Positions 1 through 44,311 of a DNA stretch of 44,311 nt are shown here, in pieces; within the stretch, counting starts at the first letter, position 1; every line of letters begins with the position of its first letter. The position numbers and the translations under genes were made by a program. Source of the DNA: a virus. The stretch lies in the IMG/VR virus record IMGVR_UViG_3300045988_112757; one strand, given 5' to 3'. The notes beneath the pieces are model-generated. The model ran no database searches and was not told the DNA's origin. It saw only the letters and a program-made list of their open reading frames with translations.

Positions 1-100
1 CGGGCGTTAATCGTCGAGGTTTCCCAGCTCCGGGCGTTAATCGTCGAGGTTTCCCGGCTCTCGGCGTTAATCGTCGAGGTTTCCCAGCTCTCGGCGTTGA
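1..100. repeat. 30-bp tandem repeat array, left portion (3 full units plus a partial); continues at 44211-44311
   Basis: Unit cgggcgttaatcgtcgaggtttcccagctc at 1-30, 31-60 and 61-90 (1-2 changes each), partial unit 91-100. Units are head-to-tail with no spacers. Confidence 0.95.
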
Positions 101-394: not shown

Positions 395-757
395 TTAGTT
401 CTCTACCGGCTCCTCCACCCGGAACCCGCGGCCCCGACGGGGACTGCGCAACATGCGACATTCGAAATCCGTACTGAACACCTCTACCGAGAACAGGCAC
501 AGCAGAACCGCGGCCCCGATGCGTCGGGTCATCTCGGACACGTTGAGCGTGATGCCGAAATTCTGCGTGAAATACCAGGTAACCAATGCCTGCAAGGTCC
601 GCTTCGTCCCCGTCTTGTCGTAGATGCTCTGGAGGTGGTTGGCTACGCATTGGTAGATCACGTTCATCCGATCTGCGATCTCGCGGGCCGAATAGCCCAA
701 TACGACGAGGTTCATCACCTCACGCTCGCGTTTGCTCAGTATGGCGTCAGTTTTCAT
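395..757 (-). CDS. LuxR/GerE-type HTH transcription regulator with a C-terminal transmembrane helix
   Basis: 120 aa. LSKREREVMNLVVLGYSAREIADRMNVIYQCVANHLQSIYDKTG matches the LuxR C-terminal HTH pattern. A hydrophobic segment RRIGAAVLLCLFSVEVF follows. Confidence 0.85.
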   Translation of the reverse strand: MKTDAILSKREREVMNLVVLGYSAREIADRMNVIYQCVANHLQSIYDKTGTKRTLQALVTWYFTQNFGITLNVSEMTRRIGAAVLLCLFSVEVFSTDFECRMLRSPRRGRGFRVEEPVEN

Positions 758-26833: not shown

Positions 26834-28063
26834 TCAAAACTGCGTCAGCAATGCGGCATTTTTCTCGCGTTCTTCTCGTTCAAAAGAGGCGAGGTAATTT
26901 TCTGTCGTCTTCAAATCCGTGTGTCCGAGGCTTTCCGAAATATAGGCAATACTTGCTCCGGAACGCTTCAATACGGTGGCGAATGAATGGCGAGCCGTAT
27001 ATGTTGAAACCGGCGGCAACCCTAACACCTTAGAAATAGACCTAAATTTACGATTTATACAACTCGTCAGGTCTTTCGCCTTTTGCCGCTGTTCCTCAAT
27101 AGATTCTTTGCCTGTAAGAATCGGGAATATGAAAGCGTCGGGGCTTTCTTTGTTCCCCCATCGTGATATAATATCCTGCATTTGAGGTACAATTATCGCC
27201 CGCACGGCTTTCCGGGACTTTGTGCGGTGCTCCGTCTTTTTCCGTACATAGCTTATTTCCCCGTCCTCAATATCACTATATCGCAACTTTACAAAGTCGG
27301 CAACATTAATCCCATTGCACAAATACATAAACAGCCAATAATCGCGGTATTTTGCCGTTGCTTCGTATCCATCATCATAACGGGCTATCAAGCCTATCTG
27401 CTCCAATGTAAGGGCCAGTTTGCGGCCCTCGCCCTCTTGTATCTCGTAGCGCCCCCGGCCAAATGGATACTGCGCCTCCTTTACAATACCAATAGCCCGG
27501 GCCTGGTTGAATATCGACCGCAGAGCACGCATATATATCGCAATAGTTGTCTGTCCCTTACCCGAAGCGCGCATAAACTCTTCAAATCGACGCAGCCATG
27601 AAATAGAAACATCTATATATTGTACCTCCCGCTTTGAAAAAGCATTCATCGACAGCAACAACGCACGCAGAATATCCGCCGTGCCTATGTGGGATGTTTT
27701 CCGCAATTCCTGCTCTTTGATTTGAATGGCCGCATTTACTGAAGTAGCACCGGCCCCTTTCAAACGAGCGCTTAACAATTCGAGTGTAAAACAACCTTTA
27801 GACGTTAAATCTTCGACAGCTTGTCGAACCAATTCAAAACTATTTTCTATATCTTTGCGAACGGATACAAGCGAGTGGAGGCGCGTTGCGTTCAGTCGCT
27901 CCCAGTCGTCGGGCATCATACTCTTACCGGTTGGGTAGTACGAGCGCACACGACGATACGATACCCGGATACGCACGGGATATTGGCCGTTTGCCAACGC
28001 CCGGCGCGTGTCGAGAATGGTGGCTACCGTCACGCCATCCTTTGAGTAGTAGTGGTTGTTCAT
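26834..28063 (-). CDS. int: Tyrosine recombinase / phage integrase
   Basis: 409 aa. C-terminal catalytic region ...YTARHSFATVLKRSGASIAYISESLGHTDLKTTENYL (R..HxxR..Y pattern). N-terminal arm-type domain typical of Bacteroidota integrases. Confidence 0.95.
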   Translation of the reverse strand: MNNHYYSKDGVTVATILDTRRALANGQYPVRIRVSYRRVRSYYPTGKSMMPDDWERLNATRLHSLVSVRKDIENSFELVRQAVEDLTSKGCFTLELLSARLKGAGATSVNAAIQIKEQELRKTSHIGTADILRALLLSMNAFSKREVQYIDVSISWLRRFEEFMRASGKGQTTIAIYMRALRSIFNQARAIGIVKEAQYPFGRGRYEIQEGEGRKLALTLEQIGLIARYDDGYEATAKYRDYWLFMYLCNGINVADFVKLRYSDIEDGEISYVRKKTEHRTKSRKAVRAIIVPQMQDIISRWGNKESPDAFIFPILTGKESIEEQRQKAKDLTSCINRKFRSISKVLGLPPVSTYTARHSFATVLKRSGASIAYISESLGHTDLKTTENYLASFEREEREKNAALLTQF

Positions 28064-35338: not shown

Positions 35339-35866
35339 TTAATACTCCAAGGCCGCCCGACGATCGATGAAGAAGTGGATTCCAGGAGCACACTCATTCC
35401 AACGGTCATCGTCAAAATCAGAAACCTCGACGGTAGCGCCGACCGCATACACGAAGTTTTCGTCATGATCCGAACAAATCATCCCAATGTCGGCATTCGA
35501 TCCGTCTATGTTCTGAATCTCCACCACATAGGCTTTGTCGCAGCGACATTTTTCGCATCCGGCGGAACTTCGTCGAGCATCCTCCGGGATTTGCAACTTC
35601 ACGATATATCCCGAAGCCTTTTTCCATCCGATGAAACTGCCATCGGTGGGGCAAGCCATGTATGTACCTTTGGCTCTGCGCAGGTTGGCGTCGCGAAGGT
35701 TGGCTCCGCACAGGTTGGCGTCGCGCAGGTCGGCGTCGCGCAGGTCGGCTCCGCCTTTCAAAGCCTCCAATACTGTTTTGGCGAGCGTATTTTCAACGCT
35801 CGAATACTCGAAAAGGATAGAACCTGTCCAGCGGTTCTTGATCGATATTTTAATTTCTTTGTTCAT
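35339..35866 (-). CDS. Pentapeptide-repeat protein with an unknown C-terminal domain
   Basis: 175 aa. GADLRDADLRDANLCGANLRDANLRRA. Confidence 0.85.
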   Translation of the reverse strand: MNKEIKISIKNRWTGSILFEYSSVENTLAKTVLEALKGGADLRDADLRDANLCGANLRDANLRRAKGTYMACPTDGSFIGWKKASGYIVKLQIPEDARRSSAGCEKCRCDKAYVVEIQNIDGSNADIGMICSDHDENFVYAVGATVEVSDFDDDRWNECAPGIHFFIDRRAALEY

Positions 35867-36244: not shown

Positions 36245-36742
36245 TTATAACTCGTCCGGTATATTATACCGCGCCTTGTCTACTTTGAGCATCCAGCCGG
36301 ATTTCTCGGCCCCATTGATGCGTATCGGAGCGTAATCGTCCGTGCTGCAGCCGTTCCGAGCCACCTCATTGCACATCGCGGAATACGTCAGAATCCGACA
36401 TTTCACATCGATGCCCAAGATGTCGGCGATCGTCAGCCGTTTGTACGTAAACGTGTCCAGCACCCTGTTCAGGGCATATTCCAGCCGCTTCCCGCTCATA
36501 CCCGTCTTCCCGATACGCTCGGCAAGGATGGAGAAGAATTCGCTCGACATATCCGGGAAACATACGGACAGCTTATGCACCGCCGTGGCGATATGTGCCG
36601 CCGATGCCGGAGGCCCGGCAAGTACGGAGACCTCCTCACTCCCACTCTTGGCGAGTGTGAGCGCGAGAGATTCCCTCGGCGACGGCCCGAGCGAGCTCAT
36701 CAGGGCTTGGGGGTTGATTCTTTGCGCTTCGTCCATAGTCAT
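36245..36742 (-). CDS. Hypothetical replication-module protein (165 aa)
   Basis: The ORF overlaps the 3' end of the upstream gene by 107 nt, so the true start may be internal. Confidence 0.55.
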   Translation of the reverse strand: MTMDEAQRINPQALMSSLGPSPRESLALTLAKSGSEEVSVLAGPPASAAHIATAVHKLSVCFPDMSSEFFSILAERIGKTGMSGKRLEYALNRVLDTFTYKRLTIADILGIDVKCRILTYSAMCNEVARNGCSTDDYAPIRINGAEKSGWMLKVDKARYNIPDEL

Positions 36743-37508
36743 TTGTCGTTTTCAGCGGGAATAACCCCGCCCAGTTATTTGCCATAGATTGTCGGATGAT
36801 CTTACGGGCAATGTCCGGCTCCCCGTTTGAAAGTTCCCGCAATTTGGAATAACAAGCCTTTAATCCCTGCTGCCGATAGGTCTGTCCGCGCTCAGACTTG
36901 TAAGCAAGCCATTCCGCCATCACTGGCTGGAGCGAAGGTTCGACGAAGGATAAATCAGTCTCTTTTCTTTTGCCGCAACTTTTCTTTTTCTCTGGTCCGT
37001 TTTTTACGGATTCATCGTCAGAGTCCGGAGAGCCGATTTCCCCCTTAGGGGGATTATAGGGGGTACTACTATTCCTCTCCTTATCCTCTCCTATTATAGT
37101 CACTGATTGATCACTGATTGATCCATGATTGATCACTGATTGATCAGTGAATTTAGCTAAAATACTGTCTAATAGCTCCTTATTAATATTTACATCGTCC
37201 AAATTAGGTCGATTGATTATTTGGTGACGGGAGAAAGTAGGAAGATAATAGAAACTCTCCGATTTGACGGAGAGAAGACTAATAAAACCGGTCTTCTCGA
37301 GCAGCCCTAACCACGCCTCCAGCTGTTGAACCTGTATTCTGTCGTAAGGAAATATTTTTGATTTTAGCCAAACGGGATCGGCGATCACCACACCCAGATC
37401 GTCCGCAAAGGTCCAAAGGCCTATATATAGCAGACGGGCGTCACGAGGGATTCGGCCTATTTTCGCGTCATCCCAAAATTGTGGCTTTATAGTTCGTATT
37501 CTCGCCAT
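36636..37508 (-). CDS. Replication initiator / replisome-organiser-like protein
   Basis: 290 aa. N-terminus MARIRTIKPQFWDDAKIGRIP..ARLLYIGLWTFADDLG is common in phage replication proteins. The gene carries an internal iteron array. Confidence 0.75.
   Translation of the reverse strand: MARIRTIKPQFWDDAKIGRIPRDARLLYIGLWTFADDLGVVIADPVWLKSKIFPYDRIQVQQLEAWLGLLEKTGFISLLSVKSESFYYLPTFSRHQIINRPNLDDVNINKELLDSILAKFTDQSVINHGSISDQSVTIIGEDKERNSSTPYNPPKGEIGSPDSDDESVKNGPEKKKSCGKRKETDLSFVEPSLQPVMAEWLAYKSERGQTYRQQGLKACYSKLRELSNGEPDIARKIIRQSMANNWAGLFPLKTTNDYGRSAKNQPPSPDELARAVAEGISRAHTRQEWE
37101..37155. repeat. Iteron array: 4.5 x 11-bp repeat CACTGATTGAT, each junction forming TGATCA (GATC)
   Basis: Units at 37101, 37112, 37123 (2 changes) and 37134, with a partial unit at 37145. 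An AT-rich stretch follows at 37150-37215. Confidence 0.7.
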
Positions 37509-41536: not shown

Positions 41537-42001
41537 TTAATCGTCTCTTTTTGCATTATAAATACCCCATAAATACCGATATGCTTTGTGATATTTCTTC
41601 AATCTCTTCAAATCTTCATTTGTGAGTTTGTCGAGGCGTGTAATATCCATATTGTGTTTGAGATCGGCAATTTTAACCTCTAATGCAGTGGAATTTTGAG
41701 CACATCGTCTAATGTATTCCATGTAATCTTCTTTATTGCGCCGTGATATAGCTTCCACGGCGTCGGCTATATCTCTGCCGAATAGCTCATTCAGGCGCTC
41801 ATATGTTACCCCGCCATCCTCTATGACCTCATGGAGCAGCGCAACTTTATCCCGAAAAGGATCATTGTAATGGTATAGTTCATTGACAATATCCAAAACC
41901 CGGAAACAATGATATATAATAGGCCGTCCTGATTTATCCTTAGAGGCTCCTAATTGCATTTCGGCGAAACGTGCCACATTTAAAAGTGATTTTGGTAACA
42001 T
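41537..42001 (-). CDS. HD-domain protein, RelA/SpoT-hydrolase (small alarmone hydrolase)-like
   Basis: 154 aa. ...GRPIIYHCFRV...VALLHEVIEDGGVTYERLNELFGRDIADAVEAISR...VKIADLKHNM follows the (p)ppGpp-hydrolase HD-domain pattern, but with HE in place of the HD dyad. Confidence 0.8.
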   Translation of the reverse strand: MLPKSLLNVARFAEMQLGASKDKSGRPIIYHCFRVLDIVNELYHYNDPFRDKVALLHEVIEDGGVTYERLNELFGRDIADAVEAISRRNKEDYMEYIRRCAQNSTALEVKIADLKHNMDITRLDKLTNEDLKRLKKYHKAYRYLWGIYNAKRDD

Positions 42002-42883: not shown

Positions 42884-42968
42884 CGGAGGGTGAGAGATTC
42901 GAACTCCCGAAGCGTTTCCGCTCGCCGGATTAGTAAGCCGGAGCCTTCAACCACTCGGCCAACCCTCC
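42884..42968 (-). tRNA. Class-II (serine-type body) tRNA with a non-canonical anticodon arm; nominal anticodon ACU, loop contains CUA
   Basis: Acceptor GGAGGGU/ACCCUCC, discriminator G, 3-bp D stem GCC/GGC with loop GAGUGGUUGAA, variable arm GAGCG-GAAA-CGCUU, T arm GGGAG-UUCGAAU-CUCUC. The anticodon arm CCGGC-UUACUAA-UCCGG has a C31.U39 mismatch. Confidence 0.8.
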
Positions 42969-43034: not shown

Positions 43035-43295
43035 TCACGCCTTTTCTTTGACGAAACGCCCGCCGGCGCCTCGCTTCCGGGTGTACTTCATAAGGTCGAG
43101 TTCTGCGGAAATACGCAGGTTCCGTTCTTCGGCGCACTTTTTCAGGAGGTCATTGCGGTCTTTTTCACCCGCGGTGAAACTCCGGCGAATGTCCGCATTT
43201 ACGCGCTCCAGCCGTTCGATCTCCGCGCGGTATCGCTTCCGCGGAGTGAAGTCCATGCCCAGAAATTTCCGGGCCTTGAATGTCTCGGTTCTCAT
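43035..43295 (-). CDS. Hypothetical coiled-coil basic protein (86 aa)
   Basis: 4-nt overlap with the upstream HTH gene. Confidence 0.6.
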   Translation of the reverse strand: MRTETFKARKFLGMDFTPRKRYRAEIERLERVNADIRRSFTAGEKDRNDLLKKCAEERNLRISAELDLMKYTRKRGAGGRFVKEKA

Positions 43296-43543
43296 ATTTG
43301 TGCAATTTCAGGGTTAACGACCATATGATACTCTTTGTAGCGGACGATCCGCCCTCTGTCGGCATCGTGGCTGTAACACCAATCGCCGACGATGATGTAG
43401 CCTTTACGCCGGAGCCGCGTGACGATCTTTCGCAGCTCTGTTGTGCCGAATTTGTTCATCGCTTTCCACACCGTCAGCGTGCCGCCTCTGATGAAATAGG
43501 CCAAGATGCGGGCCTGCGGCTTCCTTAAATCTTTCTTCTTCAT
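43292..43543 (-). CDS. Winged-helix / HTH_39-like DNA-binding protein (83 aa)
   Basis: ARILAYFIRGGTLTVWKAMNKFGTTELRKIVTRLRRKGYII. Confidence 0.7.
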   Translation of the reverse strand: MKKKDLRKPQARILAYFIRGGTLTVWKAMNKFGTTELRKIVTRLRRKGYIIVGDWCYSHDADRGRIVRYKEYHMVVNPEIAQI

Positions 43544-43993
43544 AGCTGTAAAATTTTAAGGTTTGCGCCCTGACGCTATCGAAAGCAAGGCACACCGATC
43601 GGCAGGGTATCGGCGCCATCAGGGCAAGGGTGCGGGCTTTGCGCGGTGTGATAACCACTAACTTAAATTACAAAATGGACAGAAAGAACGTGTGCACTCA
43701 GCCCGCATTGGAGCCCGTGAAGTCGATCAAAACCGCACGGGCATAATTTGCGTCTATTTATCCCGGTGGTCCTCGCCGCTCATATCATCGCAGCTTTGGA
43801 GCCCGTGCCGGTCTTTCGCGCATTTCGGCTATTTGCTTACTCGCGGCCGCATCTTCTCAATGGCGGCACATAGTGCAGTACGTTGCAGGCGTCGGTCGGA
43901 ATGGTGTGGCTCCGACTGCCCGATCGCTTTCTGCCTTGCGGCTGGGGTTATTGCCAGCGATCAAACCCCTAACCCTTGCGGGCTGCGATCTTG

Positions 43994-44088
43994 GGAGTGC
44001 GGCAGGATTCGAACCTGCGTAGATGGTACTTTACTTCACATCTCCTTCCGTTAGTTATGCGGAGGCATTGCCAACCTGCCACGCACTC
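43994..44088 (-). tRNA. Class-II tRNA-like gene (95 nt) with a very long variable arm and a non-canonical anticodon arm; identity undetermined
   Basis: Acceptor GAGUGCG/CGCACUC, C73 with a possible G-1 at 44089, D stem GCA/UGC, T arm GCAGG-UUCGAAU-CCUGC, variable arm of about 26 nt with an AGAUG/CAUCU stem. The anticodon arm UCCGC-AUAACUA-ACGGA has a C31.A39 mismatch. Confidence 0.7.
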
Positions 44089-44095
44089 CTTGTTA

Positions 44096-44311
44096 CTATC
44101 CCTGCTTCTCGAATTTTATAGAATCATCCGCGAATACAACTCTATTGTCTTGGATATACCGTGCGATGCTTTTATCGTTTACTTGGCATTCGATAGCCGA
44201 AGTAAGGATAATCATCGTCGAGGTTCCCCAGCTCTCGGCGTTAATCGTCGAGGTTCCCCAGCTCCGGGCGTTAATCGTCGAGGTTTCCCAGCTCCGGGCG
44301 TTAATCGTCGA
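44096..44311 (-). CDS. Decapeptide-repeat protein, 3' part of the wrap-around gene (5' part at 1-377)
   Basis: The same frame enters from the right edge: STINARSWETSTINARSWGTSTINAESWGTSTMIILTSAIECQVNDKSIARYIQDNRVVFADDSIKFEKQG, with stop TAG at 44098-44096. Confidence 0.75.
   Translation of the reverse strand, partial: STINARSWETSTINARSWGTSTINAESWGTSTMIILTSAIECQVNDKSIARYIQDNRVVFADDSIKFEKQG
44211..44311. repeat. 30-bp tandem repeat array, right portion
   Basis: Partial unit 44211-44234, full units 44235-44264 and 44265-44294, partial unit 44295-44311. Nt 44265-44311 are identical to nt 1-47. Confidence 0.95.

Follow-up and report, generated by a model that had tools for sequence, protein, structure and literature searches.

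We studied a tRNA-like gene in a virus genome from IMG/VR (record IMGVR_UViG_3300045988_112757). We refer to the whole stretch that was analysed, 44,311 nucleotides (nt), as the window. The gene is on the minus strand, at 43994-44088. An initial annotation, which was made from the sequence without database searches, had described it as a class-II transfer RNA (tRNA) gene with an irregular anticodon arm and had proposed that it might be an engineered decoder, a decoy for host anticodon nucleases, or a suppressor, perhaps as one of a pair with the gene at 42884-42968. By comparing the element to its relatives, we found that the outer parts of the tRNA are shared across a family of phage genes and that the anticodon region is not.

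The tRNA-like gene at 43994-44088

On the minus strand, the element reads GAGUGCG U G GCAG GUUGGCA AUGC C UCCGC AUAACUA ACGGA A, then 25 nt (GGAGAUGUGAAGUAAAGUACCAUCU), and then AC GCAGG UUCGAAU CCUGC CGCACUC C. Its parts are as follows.

43994-44088, minus strand: tRNA-like RNA gene, the window's allele of a phage family, with G1 at 44088 and the discriminator C73 at 43994 (from the Rfam tRNA model)
44089-44089, minus strand: G-1, capable of pairing with C73, a feature of the histidine type (read from the sequence)
44082-44088, minus strand: 5' strand of the acceptor stem, GAGUGCG, which pairs with 43995-44001
44065-44079, minus strand: D arm, GCAG GUUGGCA AUGC, with 3 base pairs (bp) plus G.A and with GG in the loop (Rfam alignment)
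44073-44079, minus strand: first copy of GCAGGUU, in the D arm, one end of a microhomology deletion junction (from comparison with the minihelix allele, described below)
44047-44063, minus strand: anticodon-like hairpin, UCCGC AUAACUA ACGGA, with 4 bp plus C.A and with U37, part of the allele-specific middle (sequence and Rfam alignment)
44019-44046, minus strand: extra ("variable") arm region of 28 nt, including the 25-nt insertion relative to the tRNA model, also part of the allele-specific middle (Rfam alignment)
44002-44018, minus strand: T arm, GCAGG UUCGAAU CCUGC, conserved across alleles (Rfam alignment)
44012-44018, minus strand: second copy of GCAGGUU, in the T arm (from comparison with the minihelix allele)
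43995-44001, minus strand: 3' strand of the acceptor stem, CGCACUC, followed by C73 (43994) and the trailer CAAG (from the sequence)

The features that the initial annotation had listed are all present. These include U8, GG in the D loop, the T loop UUCGAAU, C73 with its potential partner G-1, and an anticodon stem of four Watson-Crick pairs followed by C31.A39. The anticodon loop is AUAACUA, with U33, A34 A35 C36 at the anticodon positions, and U at 37. The acceptor/T configuration is 7/5, or 8/5 if G-1:C73 is counted. The gene also begins where it had been said to begin: G1 is 7 nt past the TAG of the upstream repeat-protein open reading frame (ORF), whose end reads TAG TAA (44098-44093). 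And the variable arm is indeed longer than is usual for a class-II tRNA.

The annotation had suggested that ARAGORN and covariance models be used to check the gene, and these methods disagree. The element scores 34.2 bits against the tRNA model of Rfam (RF00005), which is above the gathering score of 29, and it aligns from end to end (model positions 1-71). The E-value was 1.1e-5 in a scan of 301 nt and 0.0016 in a scan of the whole window. The alignment places the 25-nt insertion in the variable region and marks the 31-39 pair (C.A) as non-standard. However, with default settings, ARAGORN made no call for the element, and the gathering scan of the window with Rfam's default filters missed it. 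When ARAGORN's threshold was relaxed to 80%, the locus was called as either Pro(CGG) or an intron-containing Leu(GAG). Because these calls are inconsistent, there does not seem to be a stable anticodon arm; they also agree with the annotation's view that no standard amino-acid identity fits.

The cloverleaf is nearly as stable as the best fold. If the fold is constrained on the acceptor stem and the T arm, then the cloverleaf is adopted at -33.1, as compared to an unconstrained minimum free energy of -33.7, so it costs just 0.6 kcal/mol. Relative to shuffled sequences, the z-score of the element's folding energy is -2.4. A scan for sigma-70 promoters and terminators near the element was uninformative, and promoter models of the sigma-70 type are not appropriate for Bacteroidota.

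We also compared the element to known classes of tRNA. Like a canonical decoder, it has a cloverleaf with a 7-bp acceptor stem, GG in the D arm, and a T loop of the form UUCRAnY, but it lacks a 5-bp anticodon stem with a 7-nt loop and a purine at 37, and its anticodon arm is not conserved in its orthologues. Class-II tRNAs have G73 (serine) or A73 (leucine and tyrosine); the element has the long variable arm of this class, but its C73 and AAC do not fit the discriminators and anticodons of Ser, Leu, or Tyr. It shares G-1:C73 with tRNA-His, but it does not have a GUG anticodon on a class-I body, as the extra arm is long. It does not resemble tRNA-Sec, as it lacks UCA, has C73 instead of G73, and has a D stem of 3-4 bp instead of 6; the 8/5 configuration of tRNA-Sec is reached only by counting G-1:C73. 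Nor does it have the alanine identity of transfer-messenger RNA (tmRNA): it has G3-C70 and C73 instead of G3:U70 and A73, and ARAGORN's search for tmRNA was negative. Finally, the defining feature of allo-tRNAs is an 8/4 or 9/3 configuration of the acceptor and T stems (PMC5389517), whereas the T stem of the element has 5 bp.

Alleles of the element in related phages

We collected more than 200 related loci by four retrievals, with some contigs being fetched twice. The exact 25-nt 3' motif gave 43 loci in IMG/VR; a search anchored on the neighbouring winged-helix protein gave 40 loci; a slightly degenerate version of the 3' motif gave 69 loci in metagenomes, nearly all of them from the human gut; and a motif from the 5' part of the frame, which is independent of the 3' end, gave 54 loci. 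The annotation had suggested that homologues be sought in metagenomic phages. These loci have the element at the same position, and it is homologous and syntenic across them. With syntenic copies in dozens of related phage contigs and a score of 34.2 bits, the tRNA-like gene is real. Wherever ARAGORN calls a tRNA-Gln(UUG) gene, it lies about 1-1.7 kilobases (kb) downstream of the element. The window has this arrangement and shares the strands of the frame, and so belongs to the family. No such phage family was described in Rfam 15, or in the literature that we could search on phage tRNA mimics, pseudo-tRNAs, and tRNA-like minihelices. Among 50,697 phage records in GenBank, similar DNA matched the Ser and Gln tRNAs only, and the tRNA-like element had no match.

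Most of the alleles have a 5' strand (GGAGTGCG) and a 3' segment (GCAGGTTCGAATCCTGCCGCACTCC) that are identical to the window's. More broadly, the alleles share the 5' acceptor strand, the D arm, the T arm, and the 3' acceptor strand, but they do not share the interval between the D and T arms. In at least 10 structurally distinct alleles, the acceptor stem is always paired, the D arm always has GG in its loop, and the T arm is always intact; each class recurs in many contigs. The 46-nt middle of the window's type was present in about 66 of the fetched loci, as 12-13 near-identical sequences. Other alleles have inserts of 62-63, 71, 104, 120, 147, 158, or 168 nt, most of which cannot be aligned to each other or to the window's middle. 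In particular, the similarity of the window's middle to the inserts of two relatives (L138 and L083) was no better than for shuffled controls, and we rejected homology of this middle to either insert or to tRNA-Ser.

In 22 loci, the middle is missing altogether (0 nt), which leaves a minihelix of 36 nt: GGAGUGCG-UG-GCAGG-UUCGAAU-CCUGC-CGCACUCC. This allele, whose DNA reads GGAGTGCGTG-GCAGGTT-CGAATCC..., is exactly what a deletion between the D-arm and T-arm copies of GCAGGTT in the window's allele would produce. The same heptamer is found at the junctions of deletions and also at the 3' end of the LuxR-like gene in L021, L006, and L013; the allele in L013 arose by a deletion from the copy in this gene to the one in the D arm, which removed the 5' acceptor strand.

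At the 3' end, two variant groups (L086/L096 and L102) encode CCA after C73, and the trailer of the element, CAA, is the same as the trailer of the phage's tRNA-Ser gene. For these reasons, we consider the 3' end of the element to be of the tRNA type.

We analyzed the pairing of the frame in 18 distinct frames whose stems were delimited by hand. Standard pairs occupied 93.5% of the cells, versus 35-49% if the partners were slid by 1-3 columns. In the D stem, three of the four pairs had changes on both sides, and its versions include GCUC/GAGC, GUUC/GAAC, GUUU/AAAC, GCGG/CCGU, and GCA/UGC. Across the family, acceptor pair 6-67 occurs as C-G, U.G, and U-A. In the set that was retrieved with the 5' motif, for which the 3' strand is unbiased, pair 1-72 was evenly split between A-U and G-C (8 sequences each), and pair 2-71 was G.U, A-U, or G-C. 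The commonest state of the -1/73 pair was G-1:C73 (15 of the 18 frames); in one divergent member, it is A-1:U73. Every allele has a T stem of 5 bp (GCAGG/CCUGC), with one mismatch in L197, and variants in the T arm include A51G, which forms a G.U pair, and U54C. Judging from these substitutions, the frame appears to be under selection at the RNA level. The selected part appears to be the 7-bp acceptor stem, usually with G-1:C73, together with the D arm and the T arm, which is to say the acceptor/T helix and the elbow.

The middle can also have structure. The allele with an insert of 62-63 nt has a class-I-like tRNA fold in which the anticodon arm is a long irregular hairpin. In a divergent member of this class (L197), the helices of the hairpin are retained, with AUGCG/CGCAU becoming UACG/CGUA (this was seen by manual inspection, as the automated alignment was incorrect there). 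This suggests that the middle itself can be a structured RNA. For the long alleles, there was no match in Rfam at permissive E-values, including to tmRNA, and ARAGORN's tmRNA mode gave nothing either, so we rejected tmRNA or another known RNA family as an explanation for them. We also rejected a group I intron or a self-cleaving ribozyme: no Rfam ribozyme matched the inserts, which have at most 168 nt, and a group I intron would need more. The insert in L027 has a resemblance to CUGAUGA...GAAAC, which is not kept in L014.

If the element were a working decoder, as the initial annotation had proposed, then it would be a suppressor tRNA of the missense, nonsense, or frameshift type (the last with a 9-nt loop), perhaps forming a pair with 42884-42968. 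Its cloverleaf is above Rfam's threshold for tRNAs, its loop has U33, and suppressor tRNAs do occur in phages whose stop codons are recoded. However, U37, the C.A pair at 31-39, and the unstable anticodon calls are not what we would expect for a decoder, and C73 is outside of all class-II identities. CUA is present only out of register, and positions 34-36 are not CUA, UCA, or UUA. The annotation had also suggested that the anticodon arm be checked for covariation, and the comparison of homologues is contrary to decoding: the anticodon-like hairpin is invariant within the window's allele but is missing from all of the other alleles, where it and the extra arm are replaced by inserts of 62-168 nt or deleted (in the 22 loci with the minihelix), and some relatives lack the whole element. 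None of the alleles has the canonical loop of an anticodon arm (7 nt, with U33 and a purine at 37), and ARAGORN, searching for tRNAs and tmRNAs, did not call any of them.

A suppressor tRNA is not needed, either, because the long genes of the phage are intact under the standard code (code 11): the terminase has 411 amino acids, the portal protein 412, the major head protein 433, and two tail proteins 930 and 812. We considered an alternative genetic code as well and rejected it: recoding any of the stop codons lengthens random ORFs, yet the real long genes are already intact. As for the proposed pair, 42884-42968 (minus strand) is a near-canonical class-II tRNA-Ser(ACU), which scores 48.5 bits and is called by ARAGORN. 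Its similarity to the element is not above that of a shuffled control, and it is present or absent independently of the element's alleles, so it does not seem to be the partner in a designed pair. Given all this, we consider a decoding role to be very improbable.

We also considered whether the "tRNA" might be an artefact of integration, with the core of the phage attachment site (attP) having been copied from a host tRNA gene. The 25-nt segment that comprises the T arm and the 3' acceptor strand is identical in phages whose upstream sequences differ, as might be expected for such a core. But in a scan of 185,579 species, each represented by one genome, this motif had a single match, and the match is in phage-derived sequence, on a 98.9-kb contig of an Alistipes metagenome-assembled genome with phage genes on both sides. 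From this sole match, we rejected an origin from a host tRNA gene or attP, and we suggest that Alistipes is the likely host. Furthermore, the integrase gene is about 16 kb away from the element, and the 5' acceptor strand and the D arm are carried by the phage as well, where they covary with the 3' half. An attP origin is thus scarcely credible.

Possible roles of the tRNA-shaped RNA

We propose, with moderate confidence, that the locus encodes a non-decoding, tRNA-shaped small RNA (a mimic or a scaffold) and not a codon-reading tRNA. Our reasoning is that the frame, which covaries, is what the proteins that act in maturation or on the acceptor end recognize, while the anticodon region, which a decoder would have to keep, shows the least conservation and is missing from some alleles through deletion.

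Several observations weigh against this proposal. First, the window's allele has variants that break the cloverleaf and are not compensated: G7A (giving A.C), G24A (giving C11.A24, in about 15 loci), the T-loop change U54C, and an A.C mismatch within the extra arm. Second, nucleotide diversity within this allele is 0.034 in the element as compared to 0.050 in adjacent non-coding DNA, which, with few variants, is not clearly lower. Third, G-1:C73 is not universal, as the -1/73 pair can also be A.C, U.C, or G.A (G-1.A73). Fourth, the apparent invariance of the T arm and the 3' acceptor strand is largely because the loci were fetched with that motif. Fifth, some lineages dispense with the element or with part of it: it is absent from L048 and L050, its 5' acceptor strand is gone in L013 and its 3' half in L177, and the minihelix lineage no longer has the middle. 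Sixth, no target was identified when we looked for antisense complementarity between the middle and the phage genome: matches were 10-mers at most, which is the level expected by chance. Finally, the expression, processing, charging, and target of the tRNA-like RNA are all putative.

Some of these observations would be expected if the element were a decaying remnant of a class-II tRNA without any present function, with the alleles being independent stages of erosion, insertion, and microhomology deletion. The uncompensated changes, the precise deletions between GCAGGTT repeats, the loss of the 5' or 3' half or of the entire element in some relatives, the lack of an ARAGORN call, and a diversity similar to that of the flanking non-coding DNA are all consistent with a relic. 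But erosion does not predict compensatory changes in the D and acceptor stems. It also does not predict that at least 10 distinct alleles, each class being found in many contigs, would keep the acceptor stem, the GG-containing D arm, and the T arm, or that one class would retain its long hairpin through sequence change, as it appears to. On balance, we consider a functionless relic to be somewhat unlikely, but it is the strongest rival to our proposal.

Another explanation is that the element acts only in cis, as a processing signal (tRNA punctuation): cutting of a polycistronic transcript by RNase P and by enzymes of the 3' end would separate the mRNA of the repeat protein or the LuxR-like protein from the structured non-coding region downstream, and the excised RNA would have no role. 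The conserved part is just what RNase P recognizes (the acceptor/T helix and the elbow), with the middle free to vary, and even the minihelix is a plausible substrate for RNase P. Also, the element begins 7 nt past a stop codon and is directly before a conserved structured block. However, L048 and L050 keep the downstream block without the element, and a simple cut site would not require the frequent G-1:C73, or A-1:U73 in one divergent member. In one allele class, the structure of the middle also looks constrained. We view a purely cis-acting signal as unlikely.

Returning to a non-decoding, tRNA-shaped RNA, the mechanism might be as follows. The tRNA frame would make the transcript a substrate for the host's RNase P, which would form the 5' end, and for 3' trimming and the addition of CCA. 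The frame might also be a substrate for histidyl-tRNA synthetase (HisRS) through G-1:C73, which is the identity rule of that enzyme. The product would be a stable RNA of about 95 nt that tRNA-binding proteins would take for a tRNA. What lies between the D and T arms would be a module that can be exchanged or lost; in the window, it would comprise the anticodon-like hairpin and a long extra hairpin. The RNA would then either serve as a scaffold that presents the middle or engage, as a decoy or sponge, a factor that binds or targets tRNAs, without being an adaptor in translation.

A more specific idea, which we offer tentatively, is that these RNAs are a new class of small RNA: natural tRNA scaffolds with a constant frame (often with G-1:C73) that is matured by the host and a cassette-like middle that is swapped by recombination. 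They would be used in conflicts between phage and host or between phages, where they might serve as decoys, for instance for enzymes directed against acceptor ends or class-II tRNAs. The window's allele would be the closest mimic of a tRNA.

In design, the element resembles engineered tRNA scaffolds. Reportedly (Ponchon and Dardel, in 2007), an arbitrary RNA replaces the anticodon arm of these scaffolds, and the frame allows the RNA to be processed and makes it stable in bacteria. This architecture matches the alleles of the family, but the scaffolds are made in the laboratory, whereas the phage arrangement is natural and polymorphic. In topology, the long alleles resemble tmRNA (SsrA): in those with inserts of 158-168 nt, as in tmRNA, a tRNA-like acceptor/T domain surrounds a large middle that is not an anticodon arm. 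But tmRNA contains a reading frame for a tag, and we did not see one by eye in the insert of L011, which is the only insert that we inspected. Also, the middle of the window's allele is just 46 nt.

In behavior, the element most resembles the irregular G-1 tRNAs of Mukai et al. (2017, NAR; PMC5389517), which were charged by HisRS but were not used in translation, and for which those authors propose a regulatory or non-translational role. Like the element, those irregular G-1 or allo-tRNA-like sequences are non-canonical, come from metagenomes and phages, and have long extra arms or odd anticodon regions. However, they keep an anticodon, such as GGU (PMC5389517), while the phage family swaps or deletes the whole middle, and there is no sequence relationship. 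Another tRNA-like small RNA outside of decoding is the pseudo-tRNA tRNA-Other of Bacillus cereus (cited within PMC5389517). This RNA is chromosomal, has a single form without an exchangeable middle, and is unrelated in sequence to the phage element.

Phage tRNAs in accessory regions have been proposed or shown to neutralize host nucleases that cut tRNAs (PMC10264068, PMC11464382, PMC11555353). Reportedly, such tRNAs are functional, with normal anticodon loops that carry escape mutations, and they replace the cleaved tRNAs of the host. The element cannot plausibly decode, so against a tRNA-targeting defence, it would have to be a decoy. From the sequence, a decoy or mimic role in phage-host conflict is plausible, and the decoy that the initial annotation had listed among its options comes close to our proposal. 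Such a role would fit the element's location in an accessory region, the cassette-like turnover of its middle, and the nearby genes for tRNAs and for an HD_4 hydrolase, and it would be in line with what is now being reported on phage tRNAs and on defences that target tRNAs.

The tRNA genes of phages are usually interpreted as helpers for codon usage or as replacements for tRNAs that are destroyed by defence systems. If our proposal is correct, then tRNA-shaped RNAs that are incapable of decoding are also maintained by a common group of phages in the human gut. They would be a natural analogue of the engineered tRNA scaffold, with a constant part that is recognized by enzymes that process tRNAs or bind acceptor ends and a cassette-like exchange of the rest, and a new type of phage non-coding RNA that acts on the host's tRNA machinery or on tRNA-directed immunity. 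There is also a practical implication: genes like this one escape ARAGORN and Rfam's default filters, and a naive reading of the "anticodon" leads to incorrect annotations.

The surrounding phage genome

The window is the genome of a temperate phage, of about 44 kb. It encodes a terminase, a portal protein, a major head protein, tail proteins, an integrase, an ERF recombinase, a replication initiator, and a methyltransferase. The same tandem repeat of 30 nt is present at both ends of the window (3-98 and 44214-44311), so the window is a complete, circularly permuted genome. The repeat-protein gene, on the minus strand, spans the junction of the two ends. The 30-nt repeats encode repeats of 10 residues (similar to STINARSWGT) in this protein. 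In some relatives, the repeat-protein gene is missing, and the LuxR-like gene adjoins the tRNA-like gene.

On the minus strand, the order is the LuxR-like gene, the repeat-protein gene, the tRNA-like gene, about 450 nt without a convincing ORF, the winged-helix gene, an ORF of 86 amino acids, tRNA-Ser(ACU), tRNA-Gln(UUG), and the HD_4 hydrolase gene. The other features that we refer to are as follows.

395-757, minus strand: LuxR-like gene, upstream of the repeat-protein gene
43922-43993, minus strand: 3' trailer of the element and a conserved structured block, with a hairpin capped by GCAA and then the strands of a candidate pseudoknot
43292-43543, minus strand: winged-helix gene
41537-42001, minus strand: HD_4-domain protein of 154 amino acids (a marginal match, at 27.9 bits versus a cut-off of 27.2)
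26834-28063: integrase gene

We take HD_4 to be a hydrolase domain of the RelA/SpoT type. The HD_4 gene is about 0.7 kb from the tRNA cluster, and it may bear on a conflict that is based on alarmones or directed at the ends of tRNAs.

The tRNA-Ser(ACU) at 42884-42968 has A34 and a C31.U39 mismatch, and ARAGORN called the ACU anticodon in every relative that has this gene. A34 is unusual in bacterial and phage tRNAs, apart from Arg(ACG). One relative (L102) has a tRNA-Thr(AGU), likewise with A34.

The same phages have a second tRNA-like family, which is not in the window. Its members have a 5' end of GACGCAG... and G73, and they score 46-51 bits against Rfam's tRNA model. In place of the anticodon arm, they have a hairpin of about 15 bp that covaries and lacks an anticodon loop. 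We found this family at L016:9847-9942, L027:6810-6905, and L002:44-140 (all on the minus strand), and its motif is in 22 related loci.

The block at 43922-43993 did not match any Rfam family. It contains two interleaved helices, GGGGUU/AACCCC and GAUCGCU/AGCGAUC, that could form a pseudoknot, and a pair in the second helix changes from G-C to G.U to A-U across the window, L056, and L002. The block is retained in the relatives that lack the tRNA-like gene (L048 and L050), and it may belong to a separate RNA.

Farther downstream, at 43694-43821 on the minus strand, there is a conserved non-coding domain of about 130 nt with a predicted fold of several stems. One of its hairpins has double compensatory changes (GCCCGG/CCGGGC to GCCUGU/ACAGGC). 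The domain has no match in Rfam, and its indels are not multiples of three, which argues against it being coding. The domain may correspond to a structured RNA, or it may consist of inverted repeats that are bound by a protein.

The window has two other, short tandem repeats. An 11-nt unit is present in 4.6 copies at 37100-37150, within the replication-initiator gene (36636-37508), and a 15-nt unit is present in 4.8 copies at 35678-35749. These repeats may be iterons of the origin.

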